The notes under the pieces are model-generated. The model saw only the letters and a list, made by a program, of their open reading frames with translations. It did not search any database and had not been told where the DNA came from. A program made the position numbers and the translations under genes. A stretch of DNA of 64,000 nt, taken from positions 122,073 through 186,072 of the forward strand of contig JANRKS010000007.1 in NCBI GenBank assembly GCA_033763315.1. The letters run 5' to 3'. Within the stretch, counting starts at the first letter, position 1. Each line of letters opens with the position of its first letter. This document shows, piece after piece, positions 951 through 28,735 of the stretch. The stretch comes from Deltaproteobacteria bacterium. GTDB taxonomy: Bacteria > Myxococcota_A > Polyangia > Fen-1088.

Positions 951-3900
951 ATGGGATCTACCTACGTAGAGCTGCGCTGCCGATCGGCGTTTAGCTTCCT
1001 TGACGGGGCCTCTGCGCCCGAAGATCTGATTGAGCGGGCGGCGGCGGTGGGCCTCAGCGCGCTGGCGTTGGGCGACACGGGAGGCGTTTATGGAGCGCCT
1101 CGGTTTTTCCGTGCGGGCAAACAAGCGGGGGTGCGACCGCTTGTGGCGGCCGAAGTGAATGTGCAGGGGGCGCCACCGGTGTTGTTGCTGGCACAGAGCC
1201 GGCAAGGCTACCGCCACTTGTGCCGCTTGATCACGCACATGAAGCAAGGGCACGCGAAGAACGATCTCAGCGCGGCGGTTTCATATGAAACCTTGGAGGC
1301 TCACCAAGCGGGCTTGATCGCCTTGGCGGGAGCCGTGCCACGTGATGATCTGGATCGCCTCAAAGGCATCTTCGGTCCCCAGGGCGTTTATGTGGAAATG
1401 CAGCGCCACTGCGACGACGAAGCGGCGCTTGCCAACAAGCGCGCGGTAGATCGCGCGATCGGTGCCAAGGTGCCTTTGCTTGTGACGAACGACGTTCGTT
1501 ACACCGATCCTGGCCGGCGCAAGGTGCAAGACATTTTCACGTGCGCCAAAGAACGCACATCTGTGGATTTGATTGGGCGCAAATTGCTGCGCAACACAGA
1601 ACGATACTTAAAGTCACCGAAAGAAATGCAGGCGTTGTTTCGCGATCAGAAACAAGCGTTGCACAACACGCTGGCGGTGGCCGAACGCTGTGAGTTTACG
1701 CTTTCGGATCTGGGGTATGCGTTCCCAACCTTCGATGTGCCAGAGGGTGAAAGCGAGCAGAGTTATCTTGAGAAACTAACATGGCAAGGCGCAGCCGATC
1801 GCTATCCGCGGCTCAACGATAAAACGCGGCGGCAGATCGAGCATGAACTGCGCATTGTGGGGAAGCTGGGGCTGGCTGGTTATTTCCTGGTGGTGTGGGA
1901 CATCGTTCGGTTTGCGCGCGAGCGCGGCATCATGGCGCAGGGGCGTGGATCGGCGGCGAATTCGGCGATTTGTTATGCGCTGAAAATCACGGCGGTGGAT
2001 CCGATCGCCATGGAATTGTTGTTTGAACGCTTCTTGTCTGAAGAGCGCGTGGCCAGCGCACCCAGCGCTTCAGATCGCATCCCTGACATCGATTTGGATC
2101 TGCCCTCAGGGGAGCGGCGTGAAGCGGTGATTCAGTACGTCTATCAAAAGTATGGTGGGCGCGCGGCGGCGGGTGCAGCGATGACGGCAAACGTGATCAC
2201 GTTTCGGCCGCGCATGGCGGTGCGCACGGTGGGCCGGGCTTTGGGGTTTTCCGAAGATCAACTCACCCGCATCTCGAAGCTTCTGCCGCACTGGATCGTG
2301 GGGGACGACAAGCCGCTGGCGGCGATCATCGCAGAGGCAGGCTTTCCCCCCACCGAAGAGCGCACGCGCTTGCTGGCCGAGGTGGCGCGCGCGGTGCTGA
2401 ATTTGCCGCGCCATTTGGGGCAACATTCGGGTGGCATGGTGTTGGCGGCCGGGCGATTGGATGAAGTGGTGCCGCTTGAACCGGCGAGCATGCCGGGACG
2501 CACCGTCGTGCAATGGGACAAAGACGATTGCGCGGACTTGGGCATCGTCAAAGTTGATCTGCTGGGGTTGGGAATGCTGGCGGTGCTGGAAGAGGCCGCG
2601 CCATTGATTGCGCAACACGAAGGCATCAACATCGATTACGCGCATCTGCCGCCCGACGATCGCAAGGTGTACAGCATGCTGTGCAAGGCAGACACAGTGG
2701 GCGTGTTTCAGGTGGAATCGCGCGCGCAAATGGCCACGCTGCCGCGCATGCAGCCTAGCCGCTTTTATGATCTGGTGGTGGAAGTGGCGATCATTCGCCC
2801 GGGGCCGATTGTAGGTAAAATGGTGAACCCTTATCTGGCGCGGCGGCTTGGACGTGAAGAGATTACGTACCCGCACCCTTGCCTTGAACCCATTTTAAAA
2901 CGCACATTGGGGGTACCGTTGTTTCAAGAACAACTCATCCGCATGGCGATGGAAGCCGCGGGCTTTACGGGAGGGCAAGCGGAAGAGTTGCGTCGCGCGA
3001 TGGGCTTTAAGCGATCTGTCGAACGCATGAAACAAATTGAAGATGAATTGCGGCAGGGCCTTGTTGATCGAGGCATCGAAGGTGTGTCGCAAGACGAAAT
3101 CGTCACGGGCATAAAATCATTCGCGCTTTATGGGTTTCCCGAGTCGCACGCAGCCTCATTTGCGTTGATTGCTTACGCTTCGGCTTACTTAAAAGCGCAC
3201 CACGGCGCGGCGTTTTTGTGTGCCTTGTTGAACAATTGGCCGATGGGCTTTTACCACCCCGCCACGTTGATCACGGATGGCCTGCGCCACGATGTGCCCA
3301 CCTTGCCCGTGGACGTCACGCTTTCCGATTGGTTGTGCACTTTGGAACGCACGCCGCAAGGCTCGTTGGCGGTGCGCTTGGGGCTTAAGTATGTGGCGGG
3401 GCTGCGCAAAGAGGTCGGGCTGCGCATCGTGGCCGAACGCACGAAGAAGCCGTTTTGCTTAATGGGTGATTTTCATGTGCGCGTGGCGCCTCGACAGGAC
3501 GAGATGACAGCGTTGGCGACAGTGGGCGCGTTCGCAGGGCTAGGTGGACGGCGGCGCGCGGCGTTGTGGCAAGCGGAAGCTTTGGACAAATCAGGCGCGT
3601 TGTTCGAAGCCAACACAGCGCAAACAGAATCACCATTGCCCGAGATGACGGCCGACGAAGAAGCGTTGGCCGAACTGCGCGGCACGGGCGTCACATTGGG
3701 CCCCCACCCCATCAGCTTTGCGCGCGCGTGGCTGCAAAGTGAGGGCGTGGTGCCGGCCAATCAGTTGCCGAGCCTGCGCAACGGCCAGCGCGTGCGCACG
3801 GCGGGCATGGTGATCGTGAGGCAGCGCCCCATGACCGCCAAAGGGCTTGTGTTCATCACACTGGAAGATGAAACGGGGTTCTCGAATTCGGTGGTGATGC

Positions 3901-4064
3901 CCGACGTCTTTGCCGAATGGCGCACCACCATCGTGACCAGCGCGGCGTTGATCATCGAAGGGCACGTACAGTGCCGCGATGGCGTTGTGACGATCAAAGC
4001 GGAAGCTTTCGCACCCGTGAAGCAAACGGGGACCGAGGTGTCTCGATCCCACGATTTTCACTAA
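951..4064 (+). CDS. dnaE2: error-prone DNA polymerase DnaE2/ImuC (Pol III alpha-like)
   Basis: 1037 aa (DnaE2 size, shorter than DnaE1); N-terminal PHP motif YVELRCRSAFSFLDGASAPEDL; polymerase core motifs; C-terminal OB-like region; LexA-box-like palindrome upstream. Confidence 0.85.
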   Translation: MGSTYVELRCRSAFSFLDGASAPEDLIERAAAVGLSALALGDTGGVYGAPRFFRAGKQAGVRPLVAAEVNVQGAPPVLLLAQSRQGYRHLCRLITHMKQGHAKNDLSAAVSYETLEAHQAGLIALAGAVPRDDLDRLKGIFGPQGVYVEMQRHCDDEAALANKRAVDRAIGAKVPLLVTNDVRYTDPGRRKVQDIFTCAKERTSVDLIGRKLLRNTERYLKSPKEMQALFRDQKQALHNTLAVAERCEFTLSDLGYAFPTFDVPEGESEQSYLEKLTWQGAADRYPRLNDKTRRQIEHELRIVGKLGLAGYFLVVWDIVRFARERGIMAQGRGSAANSAICYALKITAVDPIAMELLFERFLSEERVASAPSASDRIPDIDLDLPSGERREAVIQYVYQKYGGRAAAGAAMTANVITFRPRMAVRTVGRALGFSEDQLTRISKLLPHWIVGDDKPLAAIIAEAGFPPTEERTRLLAEVARAVLNLPRHLGQHSGGMVLAAGRLDEVVPLEPASMPGRTVVQWDKDDCADLGIVKVDLLGLGMLAVLEEAAPLIAQHEGINIDYAHLPPDDRKVYSMLCKADTVGVFQVESRAQMATLPRMQPSRFYDLVVEVAIIRPGPIVGKMVNPYLARRLGREEITYPHPCLEPILKRTLGVPLFQEQLIRMAMEAAGFTGGQAEELRRAMGFKRSVERMKQIEDELRQGLVDRGIEGVSQDEIVTGIKSFALYGFPESHAASFALIAYASAYLKAHHGAAFLCALLNNWPMGFYHPATLITDGLRHDVPTLPVDVTLSDWLCTLERTPQGSLAVRLGLKYVAGLRKEVGLRIVAERTKKPFCLMGDFHVRVAPRQDEMTALATVGAFAGLGGRRRAALWQAEALDKSGALFEANTAQTESPLPEMTADEEALAELRGTGVTLGPHPISFARAWLQSEGVVPANQLPSLRNGQRVRTAGMVIVRQRPMTAKGLVFITLEDETGFSNSVVMPDVFAEWRTTIVTSAALIIEGHVQCRDGVVTIKAEAFAPVKQTGTEVSRSHDFH

Positions 4065-5255: not shown

Positions 5256-7790
5256 TTACGGCGTGACTGTGGGCGCCCCGTCGCGTGCGGCTGTGACGAG
5301 GGTTTGCAGCAAGGTTTCTTTGCCCATCGCGTTTTGTGACGACACGAAGTGCCCGTCGTACGCCGCAGGCGTGAATTGTTTTTGGGCAGCGGTGAAGCCA
5401 TTGAGGTTGGCCTTGGTGGCTACAGCGGCTTTCGGTACGCCCGGATAGTCGGTGAGCACCGGGCCCACCAGTGTGATGCCTGCAGCCAAGCCTAACTCTT
5501 GCTGGGTGGGCTCGGGTGAATACGTGTCCTTTTGACCATAGATGTGCAGCAAGTGTTTTGCAGGCACCATTGGAATAGGCGCGGCCACAATGCGACCCAC
5601 AAGGTTCACGGGGTCGCTGCGATCAAAATACATTTGCAGCACTGAAATCAGCGGATGGTTTTCGGGGCGCTTGAACGGATCCGCGCTGGCGTATTCCATT
5701 TGATCGCCCAAGATGGCGGGCAACGCGGCCTTGATGTTCACCGGTTTTTCTTTCGTCGTGAAGCTAAACGTCAGATATCCGCCAGACCCCGACAGCACAA
5801 CGGTTTTATAGCGAGGATCAAAACCAGCGGCCGAAGCCGCGGCATTGGCGCCTTGTGAGTGGCCATAAAGATACAGCTTCGTTTTATCGAAAGTGACGTT
5901 GCCTTGGCTGTAGGCCTCGGCCACCTTGGCCATGGCGAACAGATCAGCCGCGCCCTGCAACGCCGTATCGCGCGCCGAGACGGGGTTAAGGAAATTGAAT
6001 ACGAGATCGTCCACCTTCTTCGTGGAAACGCCCTTGCGCGTGCCATGCAAGGCACCATCGTACGAGAGCATGGCCATGGGCACGGCGGCGCCACCTGCGG
6101 CCACACCCGTGGCGAAATCTTGCGCCCATGTGTTGCGGCCCGTGAGGTAACTGCCGCCGGTGCCGTGCGCGTAAACAACCACGGGCCAGCCCGCCGCGGG
6201 TTTCTCTCCCTTAGGAACCGTTAAAGAGAAACATACGTCTTCCGTCGTTTGAACCTTTGCCAGGCCCGAAACGGCGTCGTACTCGATGGCGCCACCTTGT
6301 TCAGGTGTTTCATACGGCCGCACGCCTGCTTGGAACACGGGCAACGTTACCAAGCCCTGGTATTCGTCGAACGCTGCGTTCGCTGGGGCCGCAAGGCAAC
6401 CACGTTGTTTGTCGGCACCAACCACGCCGTCATCGCACGGAGAGATCGCTTCGCCGCATTTGACGATCGACTTGACGGCCAGGTTGGGCACGGGCGCCGC
6501 TTCCACAGCTTTTTGCAACGCCACCATCGCGGCTTCTGATTTTTGTACGGTGAAAACCGTGCCACCCACAAGCGGCGTGCCCGCCAAACCGCTTTTGGGG
6601 TCGGCGATAAAATCGCGCAACGGCTTGTAGCGGGTGTAGGCCTGCGCAAGCTCAGGATCCGCCGGCGGCGTGGCCGCCAACAGCGCCGCGAAATCAGCGT
6701 CTGGTGCAAAAGGCTGGTTGTCTTTGTCGGCCAACGGGCCCTTGATGATCACCGCGTAGGTTGCGCCGGCTTCCAAACGCCCGCTGATCCGCAGCGCCAT
6801 GTAGCGCGGGCAAATGTAACGGCTGCCGGTGTTGGTGCCCGCTCCCCCCGTGGTGGCATTCCAACCAAAGCCAAGCGGCGTGCCGAAGGCGGGTGATCCG
6901 GGTGTCACGTTGAACACCCCCATGACGCCGGACGCACCCAACTGTGTGGTGTTTGGCCAACGGGAGAAGCGAAAGAACACGGTGCCATTGGGCGAGGCAC
7001 CATCAATGTCGGCTTCGATGGCTTTGATGTATCGATCCACCGGATCGATAGGAATGAGCCCCACGCCAGGACGCGGGAAATTCTTCATGCTGAGCTTGCC
7101 GTCTTTGAAGCGCGCGTCGTTCGGAAACGGCAAGGCGAAGAAATCATCGCTGGCTGGATCCGCCGCGCGCGGCAGCTTGAACTTGATGCGTGCCGTGGCC
7201 TCTTCCGCCACGTCACACTTGGCACCCGTCCATGGCTTGAGCGCCAGCGGGGTGCTGCACACATTGGCGATGCAGAAAAGACCTGAAAAACAGCCACCCG
7301 GGCCCGTGCATGCGGCACCAATGTCGCCCGCGCCCGCCATGCGGCAGGAACCTTGGAGCCCATCGAGCACGCAGGCAAAGCCTGTGGCGCAATCGCCTTC
7401 GTTTGCACACGTGGCACCGTCACCGCCCCTGTTCATCGCGCGCGGCGTGCATGCCGTTTGTGGCAAGCCTTGCGCCGACGCCCCAAGCGCGCAGAAGTAA
7501 TCAGGCAGACACTCGGCGGAAACGGTGCAGATGGCGCCAGGGCCCGAGGTGCCTTTGGGTTGGCACGTGGCCGTGGTGGGGGCGCACGTGAGGCCAAAGC
7601 GGCACTGGGTCTCCGCGGTGCAAGCGGCGCCCACGCCAAATCCGGCAGGAACGCCGTTGTTGCCGGTACCCGCTGAGCCGCCCGTGCCCATGCCCGAGCG
7701 ATCGGCGTCCTCACTTTTGATGAAAAAACACGCTGGGCTCACGAGAACCGCAGCCAACACTGCAACCACACCTAGGCGCTTATCCGACAT
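5256..7790 (-). CDS. secreted lipase-like alpha/beta hydrolase (GHSQG motif) with N-terminal Cys-rich repeats
   Basis: signal peptide; four C-x4-5-C-x5-7-C repeats; VVVYAHGTGGS and YGHSQGANAA motifs. Confidence 0.65.
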   Translation of the reverse strand: MSDKRLGVVAVLAAVLVSPACFFIKSEDADRSGMGTGGSAGTGNNGVPAGFGVGAACTAETQCRFGLTCAPTTATCQPKGTSGPGAICTVSAECLPDYFCALGASAQGLPQTACTPRAMNRGGDGATCANEGDCATGFACVLDGLQGSCRMAGAGDIGAACTGPGGCFSGLFCIANVCSTPLALKPWTGAKCDVAEEATARIKFKLPRAADPASDDFFALPFPNDARFKDGKLSMKNFPRPGVGLIPIDPVDRYIKAIEADIDGASPNGTVFFRFSRWPNTTQLGASGVMGVFNVTPGSPAFGTPLGFGWNATTGGAGTNTGSRYICPRYMALRISGRLEAGATYAVIIKGPLADKDNQPFAPDADFAALLAATPPADPELAQAYTRYKPLRDFIADPKSGLAGTPLVGGTVFTVQKSEAAMVALQKAVEAAPVPNLAVKSIVKCGEAISPCDDGVVGADKQRGCLAAPANAAFDEYQGLVTLPVFQAGVRPYETPEQGGAIEYDAVSGLAKVQTTEDVCFSLTVPKGEKPAAGWPVVVYAHGTGGSYLTGRNTWAQDFATGVAAGGAAVPMAMLSYDGALHGTRKGVSTKKVDDLVFNFLNPVSARDTALQGAADLFAMAKVAEAYSQGNVTFDKTKLYLYGHSQGANAAASAAGFDPRYKTVVLSGSGGYLTFSFTTKEKPVNIKAALPAILGDQMEYASADPFKRPENHPLISVLQMYFDRSDPVNLVGRIVAAPIPMVPAKHLLHIYGQKDTYSPEPTQQELGLAAGITLVGPVLTDYPGVPKAAVATKANLNGFTAAQKQFTPAAYDGHFVSSQNAMGKETLLQTLVTAARDGAPTVTP

Positions 7791-12610: not shown

Positions 12611-12867
12611 CTGCCTATCAACAAAAGCTTGGGCTCATTGCGAACGGCGCGGCGAACTTCGATCAACGTCTCGTCGATGGGTGCTGGGTCGGTGGTGGAG
12701 ATCATGGAACTCATAGCGTCCGGTAACTTATCGCGTCGCTCTAGGCGACTTCACGGTGACAGGAATTGAGCGTGCCAGTTGATGTGGACCGGGCCTTGAA
12801 GAATTCAGCGGTTCGAAGGAAACCATCCGTTGGATCGCGAAGGTTGCGAGTGATTTGTGAACGCACC

Positions 12868-13689
12868 TTAAAACAGCCCAAGCTGCTTCTCGAAGGGGAT
12901 GGGCAGGACGCCGATGATGACCCATGGGTTTACTGCCACTTGGTGCCACTGCTGGGTGGTTCCGAGAAAGAGATGCAAATCCTTCTTTAGGAACTCGTCC
13001 ATGTACTTCTGCCGGACCTTTGCTATCGCCTTCGACTCATCGCCATTTGCCAATTGCAGGCAGTTCCGGTAGAGCGCACCGATCTCCCAGTCGAGGATCT
13101 GCTGCTCGCTCTTCTTGCCGGCGGCGTCTTCAAACCTGTACGAAAATTTGTATGGCAGCTTCGGGATCACCCTAAAAGTTTCTCGCCAGGCGTTGTCCTC
13201 GAATAGCTCATGCTGTCGTGAGGCCTCGCGCATCTCCTTGACCTTGTTGATATCCCACTCTCGTTCGTCCTCTTCGACCACGAACTCCAAGATGCGGGAG
13301 GGCTTAAATACGGCGAGCGAGATTTGGTTCGCCTTCGCACCCGCGATCAGCTCCTCGAGGTTATCGTAGACGCGCGCCTTCTTCAGAAGGATCTCGCGAC
13401 GCTCGCGCCAATTGTCGCCCGTGCTCATCTTGCCGACGGGCACCAGCTCGCGCTGATCCATGGGGCGAAAAGTCTCCGGGCGGATGTCCACCGTGTTGCG
13501 TTGGAGCCGGCACTCGACCCAGTCGTACTTACTGTACTGCTGCGTCTCATCGAGCCGTCGGAACGGGACCGGATAGATGCGCACCCAGCTCCCGTCCTCG
13601 CGGACACCGGCGGTACACACCGTCTCGCCATACTTCCGAGACAGCGTGGGGTACGTCTTGACGGTGATGAGAACTCGCTGCCTCTCCAT
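12868..13689 (-). CDS. hypothetical protein (274 aa) encoded directly downstream of the Panacea-like/DUF488 gene; no recognised domain
   Basis: ORF 12868..13782; ATG at 13689 (MERQRVLITVK...) chosen, 20 nt after upstream stop and 4 nt after a G9 tract; lower GC than flanking operons. Confidence 0.5.
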   Translation of the reverse strand: MERQRVLITVKTYPTLSRKYGETVCTAGVREDGSWVRIYPVPFRRLDETQQYSKYDWVECRLQRNTVDIRPETFRPMDQRELVPVGKMSTGDNWRERREILLKKARVYDNLEELIAGAKANQISLAVFKPSRILEFVVEEDEREWDINKVKEMREASRQHELFEDNAWRETFRVIPKLPYKFSYRFEDAAGKKSEQQILDWEIGALYRNCLQLANGDESKAIAKVRQKYMDEFLKKDLHLFLGTTQQWHQVAVNPWVIIGVLPIPFEKQLGLF

Positions 13690-13709
13690 CGTGCCCCCCC
13701 CCAACATTC

Positions 13710-14642
13710 TCAAAAGTGCTTGGCAGTGAGGTCCTCGCTGGCCTTGCCCGCGAGAGCTTCGGCGACACAATGGCGATGGCACTGGTTCGGCTGGTGCTCG
13801 TAGCAGGTCAGAGTTACGCGCTCGCCTGCATCAATCCAGTCCTCGATCTTCTTCAGCGCAGCCGCCTGCTTCGGAAGCCAGGTGCTCTCGTAGTGGGCAA
13901 AGAGCGCGTCGTAGTCGGCCTGCGTGTCGAGTGATTGCCGCTGCTCAGACGCGATACCGAGCTCGGGCAGGTGCTCATAGCGAATGCCGACGCCCTCGCA
14001 CCCGCGCGCGAGCGTGTTCTTCGAGAAGCCGTACTTCCGGCTTATGGGGTTTCGGCGTACGTCGCAGAGGAGCGTGACGCCGTGCTTGAGTAAGATGTTT
14101 AGGTAGCTTTCAAGCGTGTGGCCCTCGTAGCCGATGGTGCTCAGCGCAGGGCCAGTCGCTTTGGCGCGGACCGCGTTAATGCGGGCAAGCGTGGCGGCGT
14201 CACCTTTGAGGACACGCTCGGCGATCTCGCTGCGTGTCGCGAAAAACGGGAAGCGCCGATACGTATCGGCGACCAGTGCATCCCCGTGCAGACCGCGATG
14301 CCGCTTCGCAAATGCCGCGAGCTGCATGTCCGTCGTGCGGGCGATGATTTTCCGCCCCTCGGCAGTGATCTGCCAGCCGTCCAAATCCTCCAGCAGCCCG
14401 CGCTCGATTAGCTTGCGACGATCTGCGTAGGACGTGAACGAGAACGCGCCGAACTTATACGGGACGAAATCGTAGGGCGCCTCTGCCGTAGGCGCCTCCT
14501 GACAGTAGAGGAATAGCAGCTTTTGGAAGTCGAGCATGCCTGACGTGCCGCCCAGCGCATCCAGAAGCTGCAATAGCTGGCGCTGCCGCGAGAACAGCAT
14601 CGGCGACGTCGAACGGGTGGATGTGTGGGAGGTGCAATTCAT
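13710..14642 (-). CDS. fusion protein: N-terminal Panacea/SocA-like (DUF4065-like) domain + C-terminal DUF488 (YeaO-like) domain
   Basis: N-terminal FQKLLFLYCQ...YDFVPYKFGAFSF resembles the DUF4065 core (LQKLLYF...Y.YGP); C-terminal TIGYEGHTLESYLNILLKHGVTLLCDVRRNPISRKYGFSKNTLARGCEGVGIRYEHLPELG matches the DUF488 signature; alternative start near 14600. Confidence 0.55.
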   Translation of the reverse strand: MNCTSHTSTRSTSPMLFSRQRQLLQLLDALGGTSGMLDFQKLLFLYCQEAPTAEAPYDFVPYKFGAFSFTSYADRRKLIERGLLEDLDGWQITAEGRKIIARTTDMQLAAFAKRHRGLHGDALVADTYRRFPFFATRSEIAERVLKGDAATLARINAVRAKATGPALSTIGYEGHTLESYLNILLKHGVTLLCDVRRNPISRKYGFSKNTLARGCEGVGIRYEHLPELGIASEQRQSLDTQADYDALFAHYESTWLPKQAAALKKIEDWIDAGERVTLTCYEHQPNQCHRHCVAEALAGKASEDLTAKHF

Positions 14643-15236
14643 CCGGTTTGCTCTGGGCTTTGTCGCGGCACAGCCACGATTGGCTGCGGGAAAACTAATA
14701 AGGTTTGGTTAGTTAGACAAGTTTTCTCTGCCGGTGGCTTGCAATCTGCATTGTTTCGTAAGGGGACGCGAGGACAGCGGGTTCCGAGCGTGCCGCCGCC
14801 AAGACGTGCGGCCCTGACAGTAAGCCCGAGTGCGGGCGGCCTCACGGTCATTCAGTAGGTGACCATCATCGTTGACGACGAGACCTTGGGCGAAGACGCC
14901 CCGTTGCTCGCGCAGCCGCTTGCTGCCGCCACCGCTGGCCTGACCCAAGCCGGGCCTGCACAACGGCGCGCGCCCCTGCCCTTGGCCTTATCTGCCAACG
15001 ACTTGCCCAAAGCGATGGGTCACCTGTGCGCCAAGCATTTGAGCTTTAACCGCACGCAGCCACCCGTATGGCGGCTCGATTGGTGTAACTAACTTCCCCC
15101 GAAACGGTTCCCCCGATGGCCCTTGTCCGCCCCACGAAAATCACCCTCAGCTCCCTCTTTGACCGACCAATCCGCCCAGCTTCTCACGCGCCTTGCCGCC
15201 TCTCCCTTTGCTCCGCCCCGCCAAAACACCTTTGAT

Positions 15237-17178: not shown

Positions 17179-19698
17179 TCAAACGCTCAGGAATTTTTCG
17201 TTGAATGATCGTTTCACGATTACTTTTCCATCACCGTAGACGTCCAAGTTGAGAGTTGAACTGATCGTGGCCCACGACCCGGCAGGGGCGCGGTGGGGCC
17301 CCTCTAACTTCACGTATTCACCCTTCGCAAGGCGAACGGACCCATCCGGAGGAAGCTTGAGCCAGCTGGCACCCGTGCTACTGGATATCGAGAAACTCCC
17401 CGTCCACATCATTGCGGTTGGAGGCATACGAGCGCCTTTGTACTCGATGCCGACGTAAACGTCTTTTTCGCTTCCGTCCCCCGCGAAGGCCACCTTGGCC
17501 ACGAACGTACCAAACAAAATCTCATGCAATGCTTGCTCCTGCGCAGAAGCATCTGCCCTCAGCAACATTAACGGTTTACCGCCGGACCAATCGGGCACTT
17601 CGTCATCGTTGCCATCGCCCCATGGGGTGTGCCTGAGGAATACCTTTACATCATCGTAGTGGGCCGCGACCCGAGTCCCGACCTCCTTAACGGCCAAGCT
17701 TGCCAACACGAAGAGGATGCCGACGCCAGTGCCGCTTAAGACGGCACCCCCTGCAATGCCGAGCATCGCTCCTGCAGCACCAACTGCAGACGCGGCGACA
17801 GCGCCGTTGTTGCGTTTCGCAAAGCCGTCCTTGATGTTGAGCACGCAATCGACACTATCGAGCAACAACGCCACGGGAGTGAGCTTCGCTCCCTTAAAGA
17901 TCCCCCGGCTCCAAGTGATTTCCGGAAGACGGTACTTCCCGACCATGGAGGACAGACTTCCGTAGAAGCCAACGGCTCCGTAGAGGGCCGTCCACGCTTC
18001 GCGACCTTCCCGTTTTTCCCAAAATGTGTCGACGTTTACGATCAGGTTCGCGAGCTGGCCCGCAAGGCTCAACGTATCGAGGTTCGCGTCACGCAGTTTT
18101 GCCAGCGGTGACTTGGGATCGGAACTTGCAGTCGTGATTCTGCTTTTGAACGCCGTCCAGCGACGTTGGTCTTTCGCCCGGACCACTGGAAGTGCAATCT
18201 GCATCCAGGCCCCCCACACCTTCTTCGCCTTACCGGCCGGCGTGGTTATCGCATCGAGGCGGGCCTTTAGTAAGTCGGCGAGTCCTTCGTCCTTGTGTGG
18301 CGTCAAGCGCGGCAACAGGCGCAGCAGATAATCGTCAGTACCCCCTATCCCCCGAGTGTCTAAAAGGCAAGCCATGGCCACGGCCTCAAGGTGATCTATG
18401 CGTTCTTCATCACCAAGATGGTCGTCGAAAAGTCCCGCGAAAGCGTTGCCGAACCCTCCCATGGGCGGCCCGGGGGGCAAAGAGATTTTTGACGCGGGCG
18501 AAGACGCGAGCTCCTTCATGGTGCAGTCAGATACGATATACGTGTCAGCTTGCGGCCAGGCTGCTTCCACAAAAAGGTTGTTGCCAAGCGACGGCAACGA
18601 GAACGGCAACTTGCACTGCCGTTGTGGCACGCCGATCCAACGAACAACGGCCGTACCCGCGAACTCTAAAGCCGCGCGCAGTCTTCGCGACTTGGCCTCC
18701 TTGGACAGAAAATAATATGAGAGCCCGTTGCCATCAATCGGGCGCGCGTCGGTCGAGGTGCGGGCGATCTGGCCGAGCGAAACAAGTTCCTCGAGGTCTT
18801 GATCGCCTTGCACCAGAGCGCGCACATGGCAGGCCACTCGATATTGGGCGTCGGTCGCCAGGCGACTTGTCTCGGCAAGCCAATCTTGATTAAGGCGCTG
18901 AAAAATCTGCGCGCGCAGTATCGCTTCGTCCAGCGGATCAAATAGATGCACTCTGAAAATCTGCGAAATTCCCGCAGGTGAATTTATATCCAGCGGCACG
19001 AAACGTTTTTCAGACTTCGGGGAGGCTGTGTCGGTTGTGAAGGGGTCCCACAGGGGCACGAGCCGATTTGTGACAGCCGCGATTGCCTTCTTGGCGTCAC
19101 TGCCGAATCCTTCCCTGAGATCTTGCCGCACTTTCTGGGGCAGCGGAAACGGCGCCAACATGAAGAAGTAGCAGTCGTGCATTGCACATTGATTTTGTGT
19201 GCACGACAATGCGCTCAAAGCCAACCTCGTCTCTTTGGGCCCCGTTGGCACTCCCTGGGCATCGCAGTGCTGAAATGACCCGTTCTCGAAATGCAGTTCA
19301 TGCTCCAGCACCAAACCTTCGCGCAGGTTGTTCTTGGCCTTGAACACGTAAACGCGCTTGTTGTTGATCGGTTGGCTCGCCTCACGATCAAACGTGCGCA
19401 TGAAAACGCGAACTTGATTTTCGGCATGCCACTCGCATTCCATTCCGCGGTAAACCCCACCCATCAAACGCATGTTTGGCGAGAGCCGCTGGCCATGGTC
19501 GTCGGTGCCCTCTTGTACTCCAAAGAAACGATAGATGGTGGCAACTCGTGGACCGTCGTCGCCCCTGACCAGGTATTGCCGGCTCCACGGGTTCCATTGC
19601 AGATCATACAAACGATCTATCTGCCGAAATGTGACCACCACGTTCACGATCGCTGACTGAATGCCTCGCTTATCCGCGGGTTGTTGAGCGTCAGTCAT
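17179..19698 (-). CDS. large hypothetical protein (~840 aa) with glycine-zipper transmembrane segment near the C-terminal third
   Basis: ORF 17179..19725; ATG at 19698 overlaps upstream stop (ATGA); AVAASAVGAAGAMLGIAGGAVLSGTGVGILFVLASLAV GxxxG-rich hydrophobic stretch; no catalytic motif recognised. Confidence 0.5.
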   Translation of the reverse strand: MTDAQQPADKRGIQSAIVNVVVTFRQIDRLYDLQWNPWSRQYLVRGDDGPRVATIYRFFGVQEGTDDHGQRLSPNMRLMGGVYRGMECEWHAENQVRVFMRTFDREASQPINNKRVYVFKAKNNLREGLVLEHELHFENGSFQHCDAQGVPTGPKETRLALSALSCTQNQCAMHDCYFFMLAPFPLPQKVRQDLREGFGSDAKKAIAAVTNRLVPLWDPFTTDTASPKSEKRFVPLDINSPAGISQIFRVHLFDPLDEAILRAQIFQRLNQDWLAETSRLATDAQYRVACHVRALVQGDQDLEELVSLGQIARTSTDARPIDGNGLSYYFLSKEAKSRRLRAALEFAGTAVVRWIGVPQRQCKLPFSLPSLGNNLFVEAAWPQADTYIVSDCTMKELASSPASKISLPPGPPMGGFGNAFAGLFDDHLGDEERIDHLEAVAMACLLDTRGIGGTDDYLLRLLPRLTPHKDEGLADLLKARLDAITTPAGKAKKVWGAWMQIALPVVRAKDQRRWTAFKSRITTASSDPKSPLAKLRDANLDTLSLAGQLANLIVNVDTFWEKREGREAWTALYGAVGFYGSLSSMVGKYRLPEITWSRGIFKGAKLTPVALLLDSVDCVLNIKDGFAKRNNGAVAASAVGAAGAMLGIAGGAVLSGTGVGILFVLASLAVKEVGTRVAAHYDDVKVFLRHTPWGDGNDDEVPDWSGGKPLMLLRADASAQEQALHEILFGTFVAKVAFAGDGSEKDVYVGIEYKGARMPPTAMMWTGSFSISSSTGASWLKLPPDGSVRLAKGEYVKLEGPHRAPAGSWATISSTLNLDVYGDGKVIVKRSFNEKFLSV

Positions 19699-21143
19699 AG
19701 CACCGGACCCGTCGTGTCGATCCAACCCACAGCATCATCTATCGCAGCAAGGCCCTGTTCCCCCTCAGCGACGTGGTGCCGATCGAACTCTTCTGTACGC
19801 GGTTGATCGACAATCTCAATAAACGTGCGTCCAAGGAAGACCTGGCTTTGGCGACCGCAGCCGTCGATCCTCTCTAAATCGTAAACTGCGTCTAAGAGAA
19901 GCTCGTCAAACTCAAGTTGCAAGAGATCGTCGCCCGGCACCAAGTCATCCTTTGGCGTGCGCTTCTTTTGATAACGTCCATCGGTGCTGCGCAACACGTA
20001 TTGCGGATGTTCCATGTCATCCAGCGGCTCGTGAGTCGCGAACGCGATCGTCATCACGGGTGGATAGACGCAGTAAAGGTTTTGCTGGTTCACCAAGCCG
20101 GTTACGGGGGGGCCGCCCGCCACCACAATGAGCCGATCGTGCCCGTCTTTTCGGTCCGATGGTTCGCCCTTCCCTTGGGTTCCGGGCCCCTGTTTGCCTT
20201 TGCGATCAGGTAGCTGCGGAAATTCAATCATTACAGGTCCCTGTTTGGATACCGGTTCCATTCGGAGAAAGCCCGCCGAATCCAATGTGCCACTAAGCGC
20301 GGCGCCATCGCTGTCCTTGCCGCTCACGGAACAGTCCGAAATCGGGCGGCCATGCGGATCGCAGACTTTGATTTCCACCCAACCTTTTTCAAGTTGCTTA
20401 CGTTCGTCAACCCATTTTTTGAGTTGAGCCGGCGTCATGGCCTGTTCGGCGGATGCGCCTTCGACCGATGGCGCACGAACTTTCTGCAGAAGGAACAGCG
20501 CATTGCCGGTTGGATGCTGCGATGGATGCGAGATGGCGCTTTCAAGGCGGGTCCACGTTGTTTTATCCAGGGCAGCATTCTTAGATCGCGCCAAGGCGCC
20601 AAGGATTTCGTGCGCTTGTTGTGGCCGCATGGCTTCAAAGTCGCCACTTCGAATGGCCTCGGCGTATATCTCACTCATCACAAGTCTGTAAGTTCTGCCA
20701 GAAAACAAGAAGGGGTTGCCAAACGCACTCCAAAACCGTCGGGCCGCCGAATACAGCACGTCGCTGCCAGACCCTTGCTCGCCACCAGTTAGCAGCTGAC
20801 TTGGTAGAACCAGCATTCGGCGGTCAAGGATGCCTTCCATTACCCAGTCTATGGCCGCGTCGAAGTTTCCCACCTCTATGCCCGGTCCCAGATGAGCCTC
20901 AGCGAATTCGGAGACCTTCCACGGATCGAGCCGATACTCGTCATACTGTTCGCGCACGATCTGGGCTGCCAACACCGGCTCCCAGGCGTGACGTTGCACT
21001 CCATCGGGCACTTGATACCAACAGGCGACGGCGAGCCGTCTGTCGAACGCATCAAAAAATAGGTACTTGGCGGACGGCATGACTCGGGCAGTCTGATCCA
21101 CGAAGGGCGCTGCGGCAATCGATATGGACTCGCATCTAGACAT
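19695..21143 (-). CDS. hypothetical protein (482 aa), first gene of a three-gene minus-strand operon
   Basis: ORF 19695..21545 trimmed to ATG 21143, because the longer form would overlap the divergent gene starting at 21204; no recognised domain. Confidence 0.45.
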   Translation of the reverse strand: MSRCESISIAAAPFVDQTARVMPSAKYLFFDAFDRRLAVACWYQVPDGVQRHAWEPVLAAQIVREQYDEYRLDPWKVSEFAEAHLGPGIEVGNFDAAIDWVMEGILDRRMLVLPSQLLTGGEQGSGSDVLYSAARRFWSAFGNPFLFSGRTYRLVMSEIYAEAIRSGDFEAMRPQQAHEILGALARSKNAALDKTTWTRLESAISHPSQHPTGNALFLLQKVRAPSVEGASAEQAMTPAQLKKWVDERKQLEKGWVEIKVCDPHGRPISDCSVSGKDSDGAALSGTLDSAGFLRMEPVSKQGPVMIEFPQLPDRKGKQGPGTQGKGEPSDRKDGHDRLIVVAGGPPVTGLVNQQNLYCVYPPVMTIAFATHEPLDDMEHPQYVLRSTDGRYQKKRTPKDDLVPGDDLLQLEFDELLLDAVYDLERIDGCGRQSQVFLGRTFIEIVDQPRTEEFDRHHVAEGEQGLAAIDDAVGWIDTTGPVL

Positions 21144-21203
21144 GTTGTGGCGACGTTGGTAGCCTCGGCGCAGCTTGTTCGAATGTTTGCGAGGAAATTG
21201 AGA

Positions 21204-23276
21204 ATGCTGAAGCCTAGCCTTTTGTTCGGTGCGTTGTTCGCGATAGCCGTGCTCACATTTGGGGCCTGTTCCAAAGAGTCGGAGACACGCCCTTGCAATC
21301 CCGGCACTGTGTTTCTGCAATTCGTGTGTTCTAAGGCGTTGGGCGAGGTCAACGCCACCGCGGAACTTGAAGGCTTGGCGGGTCAAAGGTCGTCGAAGTC
21401 CTTCAACTTCAACTGCCCGGGTACCTATAGCCTGGAGGTTAAAGTCACAGGCTACGAAACCGGCGGCAAGATCAATGCCTTGGTCAACGCGACCGCTGGC
21501 GACGGGATTTTGCTCAAGGACAAATCGGTCGAGATACCGTTGCAAGATGGGTGCACTAGATTTGATCTGGAACTGGATGCCTCCGACGCACTAGACGCGG
21601 CGGTGGTGATGAACAGTGAAGATGGCGGCACTTTGACGGGCAACGATGGGGCCGCGACAACTGATGCCGATTCCACCTCAATGGGAGTCGCCCGGGGCGG
21701 ATCCTGTGCGCGCGACGAACAATGCATTGATGGTCATTGCGTCGACGGCGTCTGCTGCGACACAGCTTGCGATGGCGTGTGCATGGCCTGCACCAACGAA
21801 AAGACCGGCAGCCAAACGGGCCAATGTTCGGCGACAAAATCAGGCGTGAAGCACAGCAAGTGCGTTGCCACTGAGCCAACGTCGTGCGGCACCGACGGCG
21901 CGTGTAACGGCGCCGGGAAGTGCAGTTTCTGGGACAGCACGAATGAATGCTCAGCGGCCACATGCAGCAGTGGCGACTACGTGCCAGCCCGAAAGTGCAA
22001 CGGCGCGGGTGCCTGCCAGGCAGCGGCACCCAGCAAGTGTGGTGAATACGCTTGCACAGGCGAGGGATGCAAAACCAATTGCAGCGTTGCAGGCGATTGC
22101 TCTGCGGGTGTGCAATGTATCGGCGGGAAATGCGGAGGCAAGCGCGCCTTAGGCGACGCTTGTTCCACCAACAGCGAGTGCACAAGCCCGGGATATTGCG
22201 TGGACGGAGTTTGTTGCGGCGCAAAGTGTGACGGCAAATGCGAAGCCTGCAGTGCGACGCTGACGGGCGGTAACAATGGAGAGTGTCTGCCGGTGCCTGC
22301 AGCCAAAGGCAATCAAGCCGATTGCTCGGTTCAATCGGCCGCAAGCTGTGGGATGACTGGGCGTTGCGATGGTGCCCGGAAGTGCGAGCTGCACGCCGCT
22401 GGGACGGAATGCGTAGGGCAAACGTGCTCGGGCGCAGGATACGCTCCCGCTCGTAAGTGTGACGGGGCCGGGAGTTGTCTCCCCGTTAGCGTGATGAGTT
22501 GTGGAACCCACATCTGCGCCGCAGGAAACTGCAAGAATCCTTGCGCGTCTGACAATGACTGCATCTCTGGTAACTTCTGCAGCAACGGGACCTGTACGGC
22601 CAAGCGTGACAATGGGGCTTCCTGCAACGGAGGCGGTAACCAATGTGCGAGCGGCATTTGCTCGAGTTCAGTGTGTTGCAACTCAGCATGCAGCGGAAGC
22701 TGTAACAGTTGCAAGTCAGGAACCTGTTCGAATGTCTGTCAGAATGTGACAGTCGGCCTGAACAACAACATCAGCGGGCACCTGCATACTGCTTACGGCG
22801 CAGTCTCGAAGCGCGAAATTTTCCAAGTGGGCGACACCGAACTGCAAATTGATGGCTACAGCATCGCTTACTTTAGCTTCGATGTGTCCTCCATCCCATT
22901 CGGGTACACAGCGACGGCGGCAACACTCTCGTTCATAGTCTCTGACTGTAATATGAACGCCTTCGCGCTCGGGAATATGACGGTTGAACCTCTGGATTAC
23001 GGAACGACTTTTGAGCCGGCAGATGCGTTGATCGCAGCAACGGCGACTGGAAAAGTGGTGGCGAGGTCAGAAAGCGACGTCGGCACTATCTCAATCGATG
23101 TTCTCGATTGGGTGAACAAAGACTTAACGGCCCGCCACTCGAACCTCAGTCAGTACAGAATTCGATTTGCGACGACGCAGAATAACGACGGTCGCAATAC
23201 TTCTTGCGCGATACCGAATTCCACGTTCATTGCCCCAGTGGTTCCTTCTCTTTCCATGTCTGTAAGACAGCCGTAA
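21204..23276 (+). CDS. lipoprotein with Myxococcus-type cysteine-rich repeats and a C-terminal non-repeat domain
   Basis: ATG 21204 with GAGGAAA RBS and lipobox LTFGAC; more than ten C..DG.C..G.CC...C.G.C..C repeats. Confidence 0.7.
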   Translation: MLKPSLLFGALFAIAVLTFGACSKESETRPCNPGTVFLQFVCSKALGEVNATAELEGLAGQRSSKSFNFNCPGTYSLEVKVTGYETGGKINALVNATAGDGILLKDKSVEIPLQDGCTRFDLELDASDALDAAVVMNSEDGGTLTGNDGAATTDADSTSMGVARGGSCARDEQCIDGHCVDGVCCDTACDGVCMACTNEKTGSQTGQCSATKSGVKHSKCVATEPTSCGTDGACNGAGKCSFWDSTNECSAATCSSGDYVPARKCNGAGACQAAAPSKCGEYACTGEGCKTNCSVAGDCSAGVQCIGGKCGGKRALGDACSTNSECTSPGYCVDGVCCGAKCDGKCEACSATLTGGNNGECLPVPAAKGNQADCSVQSAASCGMTGRCDGARKCELHAAGTECVGQTCSGAGYAPARKCDGAGSCLPVSVMSCGTHICAAGNCKNPCASDNDCISGNFCSNGTCTAKRDNGASCNGGGNQCASGICSSSVCCNSACSGSCNSCKSGTCSNVCQNVTVGLNNNISGHLHTAYGAVSKREIFQVGDTELQIDGYSIAYFSFDVSSIPFGYTATAATLSFIVSDCNMNAFALGNMTVEPLDYGTTFEPADALIAATATGKVVARSESDVGTISIDVLDWVNKDLTARHSNLSQYRIRFATTQNNDGRNTSCAIPNSTFIAPVVPSLSMSVRQP

Positions 23277-27505: not shown

Positions 27506-28735
27506 ATGGCTTCGTTTCCCACGGCTCCCGTTCTGACACTGCGCAAGGCTTTGGGCCGCGCGTTGGCCCAAGGTCACCCGTGGGTCTACCGGCAAGCCTT
27601 GGCCAGCCCCCCCCGTTTGCCGTCAGGATCCTTGGTGATGCTCACCGAAGCGCAGAACGCGGCGCCTTTGGCCTGGGGCTTTTGGGACGCCGAATCCACC
27701 ATCGCCGTGCGTGTGCTTGGTATGGGGCCGGTGATGGCCGCCCCCCAGCTGGGCCCCGAGATCAAAGCGCGTCTTGAGCATGCGCTGGCGCGACGGTTGG
27801 ATCGGTTGGCGCCCGAACGAACGAATGCGTTTCGTTGGGTGCATGGTGAGGCCGATGCGCTGCCGGGCATCCACGTCGACGTGTATGGCCACCACGCCAC
27901 CATTCGGTACGACGGCGCGGGTGCGCACGCGTTTTATGGCGAACAGTTGGCGTTGCCCGAGCTGCTCGTCACGGCCGGGCAAGCCGTGCCGATCTCCGCC
28001 GTGGTGGCGCGCCGAAGGCGTGGGCAGCCTGAACTCACCGGCGCCACGGCCGAGCCTTTCGTGGTTCGCGAAAATGGTTTGCAATTCATGGTGGATCTTG
28101 TGCACGGGCAAAAAGGCGGCCTGTTTTTAGATCAGCGCGAAAACCGCGCGCGTTTGGCCGATCTGTGTGCAGGCAAGCGCGTCTTAAACTTGTTCGGATA
28201 CACAGGTGCGTTCTCCGTTTACGCCGCCGCGGCGGGCGCGGCGTGGACCGACACGGTGGATGTCGCCGCACCTGCGATGGCGGCGGCACGCAAGAACTTT
28301 GAGCTCAACGGGCTGGCCTTAGATTGTGCAGGCTTTCACGCTGAAGACGCGTTCGCCTTCTTGGAACGAGCGATCAATGCCAAGGAAACGTGGGACGTGG
28401 TGATCACCGATCCGCCGAGTTTTGCCCCCAACGAAAAGTCACTGGACACGGCGCTCGCGGCTTACCGACGGCTTCACGCGCTGGCATGCAAAGTGGTGGC
28501 GCCCGGTGGCTTGTTGGCCGCAGCGTCGTGTTCAAGCCACGTAAATCGCAAGCTGTTCTTAGACACCGTCACGAACGGCGCCGGGGCCGCCGCCAAGCGC
28601 TTCGAGCTCGAGTTCTTTGCAGGCGCAGGCTTCGACCATCCGGTGATCGCCGGTTTCCCTGAAGGCGACTATCTCAAATTTGCGTTAGGCCGCGTGGTTG
28701 ACGCGAGCCGCTCCACACAGATGCCAAGGCTCTAA
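27506..28735 (+). CDS. class I SAM-dependent rRNA methyltransferase, RlmI/RlmK-like
   Basis: VLNLFGYTGAFSVYAA SAM-binding motif; VVITDPPSF motif IV; PUA-like N-terminus. Confidence 0.8.
   Translation: MASFPTAPVLTLRKALGRALAQGHPWVYRQALASPPRLPSGSLVMLTEAQNAAPLAWGFWDAESTIAVRVLGMGPVMAAPQLGPEIKARLEHALARRLDRLAPERTNAFRWVHGEADALPGIHVDVYGHHATIRYDGAGAHAFYGEQLALPELLVTAGQAVPISAVVARRRRGQPELTGATAEPFVVRENGLQFMVDLVHGQKGGLFLDQRENRARLADLCAGKRVLNLFGYTGAFSVYAAAAGAAWTDTVDVAAPAMAAARKNFELNGLALDCAGFHAEDAFAFLERAINAKETWDVVITDPPSFAPNEKSLDTALAAYRRLHALACKVVAPGGLLAAASCSSHVNRKLFLDTVTNGAGAAAKRFELEFFAGAGFDHPVIAGFPEGDYLKFALGRVVDASRSTQMPRL

Follow-up and report, generated by a model that had tools for sequence, protein, structure and literature searches.

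A DUF488-containing gene pair in a Deltaproteobacteria contig belongs to the candidate defence family PDC-M19

The PDC systems are 145 untested candidates drawn from genes that lie within BREX, DISARM and type I restriction-modification (R-M) loci (Payne et al., bioRxiv 10.1101/2024.01.29.577857), and a supplementary table of the same work gives the cassette CAS_00089 (FAM_02799>>FAM_02993) the entry 'assign as candidate PDC-M19'. A pair of genes matching this family, termed here A (13710..14642, minus strand) and B (12868..13689, minus strand), was found in a stretch of 64,000 nucleotides of contig JANRKS010000007.1 from a Deltaproteobacteria bacterium (assembly GCA_033763315.1, positions 122,073 to 186,072), which is called the window below. 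The PADLOC hidden Markov models of PDC-M19 match both proteins at full length: PDC-M19A (PDLC04505) covers residues 17-309 of the 310 of A (E 1.1e-100), and PDC-M19B (PDLC04508) covers residues 1-273 of the 273 of B (E 3.1e-113). As in the PDC-M19 layout, A is immediately followed by B on the same strand. In addition, relatives of the pair lie inside type I R-M, BREX and DISARM loci, which is the signal defining the candidate. An earlier note on this DNA could match the arrangement to no named system; judged by the profile matches, the cassette belongs to an already catalogued candidate defence family. The copy in the window differs from that family in not being embedded in any defence system, and PDC-M19 is itself a bioinformatic candidate.

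Among other described systems, Panacea toxin-antitoxin pairs (PanAT; DUF4065/SocA, PF13274) resemble the locus in having a two-gene operon, an upstream DNA-binding domain and an uncharacterised downstream partner, and DarTG pairs a DNA ADP-ribosyltransferase toxin with a macrodomain glycohydrolase antitoxin. Protein A carries a domain of DUF488, a large family for which, to our knowledge, no biochemical function has been demonstrated and no substrate is known. DUF488 has reportedly been placed in the rhodanese-phosphatase superfamily. A related statement concerns the sister domain DUF4326 (PMC9503650). The locus shares with the DUF488 family a strong Pfam match, the conserved Cys, His and Arg motifs, and a predicted role in conflict systems linked to nucleic acid or ADP-ribose; peculiar to this cassette are the N-terminal winged-helix fusion and the obligate partner from the B family. 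We give about even weight to the reading that the pair is a member of the widespread mobile cassette PDC-M19, a nucleic-acid-directed conflict module (anti-phage or against mobile genetic elements) with a mechanism that we infer.

Conservation of the two-gene pair

The coordinates of A (310 amino acids) and B in the earlier note, and the gap of 20 nt between them (13690..13709, minus strand, from the TGA of A to the ATG of B), agree with the list of open reading frames (ORFs) and the spacer sequence, and the size of B is corrected from 274 to 273 amino acids plus the stop. Databases hold more than 4,300 homologues of A and more than 7,000 of B, the B family forming 2,534 clusters at 50% identity, and the ratio of nonsynonymous to synonymous substitution rates (dN/dS) of both genes against their closest relatives is 0.07-0.13. 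Therefore, A and B are genuine genes under strong purifying selection.

The comparison took in 80 reference-genome loci from more than 12 phyla in which B is present at 64-94% identity. In 79 of them, a full-length A homologue directly precedes B in the same orientation, and the sole exception is cut by a contig end; the suspected co-occurrence of the two genes is thus borne out. The same A-then-B order is found in 10 of 10 viral contigs carrying the pattern, out of 2.9 million in IMG/VR, and the main-clade motif is present in 568 of 185,579 species genomes. Most relatives have a short spacing, with a median of 15 nt between the last codon of A and the first codon of B that could be aligned, the 3-nt stop of A included. 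Meanwhile, the identities of A and B are correlated across relatives (Spearman 0.68). A and B are an obligate, functionally linked two-gene pair.

At three loci (L020, L029 and L040; L numbers denote the loci compared), B is ~70% identical to the B of the window and the adjacent A is only 35-36% identical. This combination suggests that A variants have been exchanged between cassettes.

Domains and conserved residues of the two proteins

The N-terminal part of A had been read as a Panacea/DUF4065 domain. Pfam scans at permissive E-values found PF13274 neither in A (E<=1) nor in 47 A homologues (E<=10), and this assignment is rejected. Generic winged-helix models matched the homologues in a permissive Pfam scan (HemN_C in 22 and CggR_N in 10 of the 47), and the N-terminal winged-helix/helical region of A (14163..14594, minus strand, ~residues 17-160) is a generic winged-helix domain. 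With no Panacea domain in A, the main argument for an antitoxin gating a toxin is removed. A has no significant sequence relative in the PDB, and neither A nor B has an NCBIfam family; phrog_14939 matches A (E 1e-48), and the AlphaFold model of A has a mean predicted local distance difference test (pLDDT) score of 85.4. One A homologue, P0197 (426 amino acids), has an additional N-terminal ParB_N domain (PF02195, E 2e-12). In a PNAS 2025 survey, CTP was bound by an archaeal ParB-CTPase fusion to DUF488-HTH (PMC12704722).

These results bear on a classical type II toxin-antitoxin system, in which A would be a Panacea-type antitoxin neutralising B and B would be a new toxin. The bicistronic layout, with A 5' of B and a 20-nt spacer, is what such a system would have, and the DNA-binding winged helix of A could autoregulate. 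However, the Panacea domain is not there, both proteins are large and have enzyme-like invariant residues, and the replacement of A by a ~35%-identical variant beside a ~70%-identical B is unexpected for a tight neutralising interface. The lack of PF13274 in A and its 47 homologues also sets the cassette apart from PanAT, as do its enzyme-like partner domain and the convergent, winged-helix-less variants of other lineages. We regard a classical toxin-antitoxin system as highly improbable.

The DUF488 domain that had been recognised in A is confirmed by PF04343 (residues 177-297, E 3.7e-28, 99 bits against a cut-off of 22.2), which also matches 47 of 47 A homologues. The domain (13743..14150, minus strand, ~residues 165-300) is predicted to have a rhodanese-phosphatase-like alpha/beta fold with a conserved Cys loop, and the structural neighbours of its model are Cys-dependent phosphatases and diphthine-synthase-like methylases. 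Two loops stand out among the 47 homologues. In the loop CDVRRNPISRK (14034..14066, minus strand), D194, R196, N198, S201, R202 and K203 are invariant and C193 is nearly so (>=90%). In the putative catalytic loop CYEHQPNQCHR (13773..13805, minus strand), C280, E282 and C288-H289-R290 are invariant; in the AlphaFold model it sits between the last strand (E276-280) and the last helix (H290-300) of the domain, and its motif is kept in short DUF488 partners of actinobacteria and phages. The model of the DUF488-N3a 'active' subclade (PF22751) scores 25.5 bits on A, against a cut-off of 27, and covers residues 237-298 only. On the short partners, it scores 34.1 bits for that of the Rhizobium plasmid pRL8, and its precomputed match is unmarked in Nocardia and 'weak' in Mycolicibacterium.

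No recognisable domain had been seen in B, and this stands: no match was found in Pfam, in NCBIfam or among PDB sequences, the last searched with a narrow and a broad profile. B is matched by phrog_25907 (E 6e-63). Across 93 diverse members of the family, R37, D68, R70, E72, D200 and W201 do not vary, and C25 and E202 rarely do. The invariance of polar residues over so diverse a set suggests a specific ligand pocket or active site in B, not a passive binder.

The single Pfam family repeatedly matched by distant B homologues is DuOB ('Dual OB-containing domain', PF22557). It is matched by 4 of 93 sequences of the broad B set and by 30 of 77 of an actinobacterial branch, with a best E of 4e-5 and all matches below the curated cut-off; the homology of this branch with B is beyond doubt (hhalign probability 100%, E 9e-59). 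The DuOB model gives no match to B itself, and a homologue search from gp43, the B homologue of a Gordonia phage, returned no match bearing a precomputed DuOB annotation. The AlphaFold model of B is poor (pLDDT 60), having been built from a shallow alignment of 70-93% identical sequences, and Foldseek found no PDB match for this low-confidence model. Likewise, an hhalign comparison of the N-terminal with the C-terminal half of B was negative for an internal duplication. B is probably OB-like and a remote DuOB relative, differing from DuOB in that B itself is unmatched, the matches of its homologues are sub-threshold, no internal repeat is detected and its model is of low confidence. The actinobacterial and phage branch has further conserved residues (gp43 numbering), C195 being invariant and C200 and H203 nearly invariant, within a branch-specific motif YRC....C.GH.QKVLDWE that the clade of the window lacks; these extra Cys and His residues may form a small metal-binding insert.

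A DarTG-like toxin and antidote, or abortive infection, would have B modify nucleic acid (e.g. single-stranded DNA) and the DUF488 domain of A remove the modification, as the DarG macrodomain does with the ADP-ribose of DarT. The sole hint in this direction is a structural match of A to DarG. However, this fold match is barely better than that to phosphatases, neither A nor B has a macro or DarT sequence signal, and B has no match resembling an ADP-ribosyltransferase. A system of this kind is unlikely here.

Gene layouts, neighbourhoods and mobility

A second gene layout exists outside the main clade. In Nocardia and Mycolicibacterium, a stand-alone DUF488 protein of 157-163 amino acids, assigned to the N3a 'active' subclade, is encoded tail-to-tail with the B homologue, the two genes overlapping, and Rhizobium pRL8 carries the same convergent pair of B and short DUF488. 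The short partners have no N-terminal winged-helix region. Temperate Gordonia phages (Nymphadora and its relatives) have the B homologue gp43 flanked by the immunity repressor gp44 on one side and by gp42 on the other. Nymphadora gp44 was considered as an A homologue and rejected; the DUF488 partner is gp42, on the other side of gp43. The gene for gp42 (L083:5822-6274, NC_031061.1) is annotated 'HipA toxin, toxin-antitoxin system?' but encodes a DUF488 protein 62% identical to the Nocardia DUF488-N3a protein; it converges with gp43 in the interval bounded by the immunity repressor and the integrase.

As far as these gene comparisons go, the functional partnership is that of B with the putative DUF488 catalytic domain, and the main clade has the winged-helix region as an accessory. 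Since a convergent layout without the winged helix exists, DUF488-first co-transcription is not needed. An upstream-antitoxin, downstream-toxin operon is likewise hard to reconcile with the short DUF488 partners of Actinobacteria, Rhizobium plasmids and Gordonia phages, which are devoid of the N-terminal region and convergent with B instead of upstream of it, even though the presence of the pair on plasmids, integrative and conjugative elements (ICEs) and prophages would suit a toxin-antitoxin system. Of the earlier proposal of a candidate toxin-antitoxin or defence pair, the part that stands is a linked, horizontally acquired candidate defence pair; the classical toxin-antitoxin part falls with the missing Panacea domain, the convergent variants and the partner swaps.

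The neighbourhoods of 77 loci were examined in a seed-based count of R-M, BREX or DISARM-like genes within 5 genes of the pair. Such genes are present in at least 19 of the 77, and the suggestion that homologues sit in defence loci thus holds for about a quarter of them, which lie in or beside type I R-M, BREX or DISARM-like operons. The pair is inserted in the orders HsdM-HsdS-[A-B]-HsdR (L039, L062 and L072), HsdR-HsdS-[A-B]-HsdM (L050) and Xis-[A-B]-BrxA...BrxC-PglX (L002 and L003), and in L008 and L010 it stands between DISARM-like SNF2 helicases. These insertions place the cassette within immune operons based on methylation. Across loci, the pair has no conserved third gene beside it.

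Copies also occur on mobile elements. Excisionase and serine recombinase genes adjoin the pair in its closest relatives; one copy is on an ICE beside a type IV secretion system, and another is in a transposon-rich region with HEPN_AbiU2. Further copies are on conjugative plasmids, including pRL8, where the pair lies by primase- and helicase-type transfer genes, and Sulfolobus conjugative plasmids, and one is in the immunity region of a Gordonia prophage. In Sulfolobus pSOG2, the 168-amino-acid gene 3' of the B homologue is not detectably DUF488.

Accordingly, the pair might be seen as a service of mobile elements, protecting or processing incoming DNA (anti-restriction, establishment), or as a regulator of the surrounding R-M or BREX operon. 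The copies by transfer genes on pRL8, on Sulfolobus conjugative plasmids and beside the ICE secretion system, the excisionase and serine recombinase genes of the closest relatives and the ParB_N fusion of P0197 all fit this; an OB-like binder of single-stranded DNA would suit conjugative single-stranded DNA, and a winged-helix protein directly 5' of BrxA recalls BREX regulators. However, co-directional embedding between HsdS and HsdR, seen on the chromosomes of several phyla, is typical of accessory defence and not of anti-defence. In addition, many copies, including that of the window, are chromosomal with no mobility genes nearby, and merely 10 of the 2.9 million viral contigs carry the pattern. 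Such a service or regulatory role is improbable in our judgement.

The earlier note had inferred horizontal acquisition from a low-GC islet. The mean GC content of the window is 59.6% (standard deviation 2.6%, 1-kb windows), compared with 62.0% for A and 57.9% for B, and the flanking genes have 57-62%, not the 66% given before. GC content at third codon positions (GC3) is 78-79% in A and B, the highest of the region and above the flanks. A dip to 53-55% GC, within normal variation, is confined to the second half of B and the spacer that follows it. With no anomaly in gene-wise GC, GC3 or the 1-kb window distribution, the islet is rejected. Acquisition itself is supported on another ground: DNA similarity to the nearest relatives (88-89%; L001-L004) spans exactly 12867-14633, so that the shared DNA begins and ends with the two ORFs. 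By these boundaries the cassette is judged to move as exactly two genes and to be horizontally mobile. The excisionase and serine recombinase of the closest relatives were sought in the window by tblastn and neither was found; no integrase or excisionase is present there.

As described before, the cassette is flanked on one side by a gamma-glutamyl-type amine-catabolism set (Gln-synt_C, Fe-ADH, Peptidase_C26 and Aldedh) and on the other by a gene for an RCC1-repeat protein. PADLOC scans of 10 flanking ORFs gave nothing but a partial mad2-like match 14 kb away, and the cassette here is a stand-alone copy among housekeeping genes. The match is in a 409-amino-acid product (27506-28735, plus strand), of which residues 201-347 match PADLOC 'mad2' of MADS (E 1e-18); it probably reflects a shared domain rather than a defence gene.

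The initial ~13 residues of A are not conserved among homologues, and for this reason the true start of A could be Met15 at 14600. The A-B spacer contains a G9 run at 13694-13702 (minus strand), a Shine-Dalgarno-like element, in place of a G5 run at the same position in the closest relatives L001-L004. The expansion from G5 to G9 brings an upstream ATG (13707) into frame with B, which accounts for the 279-amino-acid call of B in a Logan contig of the same organism.

About 600 bp of non-coding DNA had been noted upstream of A, and 594 bp were measured (14643..15236). This region is outside the conserved cassette. It has no blastn DNA match (E<=1e-5) in 80 related loci, and scans of 12.4-15.4 kb for Rfam families and for sigma-70-like promoter sites gave no match within it. 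A perfect inverted repeat, CAGCCA-ATCG-TGGCTG, lies at 14671-14686, 29 nt before the ATG of A; the winged-helix region might use it as an operator, or it may have arisen by chance, and it is not kept in relatives, whose upstream DNA is unrelated. On the 3' side of B, 257 bp of non-coding DNA (12611..12867, 55% GC) separate it from the convergent aldehyde dehydrogenase gene. One terminator-like hairpin was found (12835-12849, plus strand), and the hairpin count is not above the shuffled expectation.

Elsewhere in the window, the ORF at 951-4064 (plus strand) encodes a 1037-amino-acid DNA polymerase III alpha-type protein with PHP, pol3 alpha, finger, HHH and OB domains, whose length suggests a DnaE2-like error-prone polymerase. 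Three large ORFs on the minus strand, 5256-7790, 17179-19725 and 19695-21545 (844, 848 and 616 amino acids), have no Pfam or PADLOC match. Two of them are directly 3' of the RCC1-repeat gene, and this arrangement is kept in the Logan contig of the same organism.

A proposed role in nucleic-acid conflict

Several points weigh against a conflict role for the pair. Its neighbours are housekeeping genes in this window and in Stigmatella, ~3/4 of the loci have no R-M, BREX or DISARM gene in the seed-based count, and embedding in defence operons is an association only. For an immune gene, 64-94% identity between phyla is uncommonly high. Meanwhile, the searchable literature holds no experiment on PDC-M19, which was not among the eight PADLOC candidates tested in one study, and no paper was found on DuOB or on DUF488 as a defence system.

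Some of the same observations would be expected of a housekeeping module for nucleic-acid repair or nucleotide metabolism with no conflict role. The very high cross-phylum conservation and low dN/dS agree with it, as do the neighbours in the window and in Stigmatella; the standalone DUF488 protein YeaO, too, is the product of a chromosomal E. coli gene. However, the distribution is patchy (the 568 species genomes mentioned above), the cassette has exact boundaries and unrelated flanks, and it is enriched beside R-M, BREX, DISARM and mobility genes. A housekeeping module seems quite improbable to us.

For the pair as a conflict module, the following mechanism is proposed. B would bind single-stranded nucleic acid, or a nucleic-acid end, through its OB-like fold or folds and a polar pocket formed by R37, D68, R70, E72, D200, W201, E202 and C25. 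The DUF488 domain of A (C193-DVR, C280-x7-CHR) would perform cysteine-dependent phosphotransfer or dephosphorylation on a nucleic-acid terminus or a nucleotide-derived moiety, and this step would block replication of the invading DNA or signal the presence of the invader. The winged-helix region of A would tether the enzyme to DNA, autoregulate the operon, or do both, and would be dispensable in the short actinobacterial and phage form.

More tentatively, DUF488 and a DuOB-like B may constitute a new immune or accessory class, in which a Cys-dependent enzyme of rhodanese-phosphatase fold would modify or trim phosphorylated ends, or a nucleotide- or ADP-ribose-derived signal, and the OB-like partner would present the substrate; possible as it is, we lean against this more specific proposal. 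We know of no characterised defence system that uses such end-modifying or trimming chemistry. If true, the proposal would explain both the repeated insertion of the pair in R-M, BREX and DISARM operons and its 64-94% identity across more than 12 phyla.

For annotation, the locus is best labelled 'PDC-M19 candidate (wHTH-DUF488 + partner)' and not 'Panacea toxin-antitoxin'. Two gene layouts, found across Bacteria and actinophages, link the B family to DUF488, and the compact 1.8-kb cassette offers a well-defined target for work that could give both DUF488 and the B family their first assigned function.

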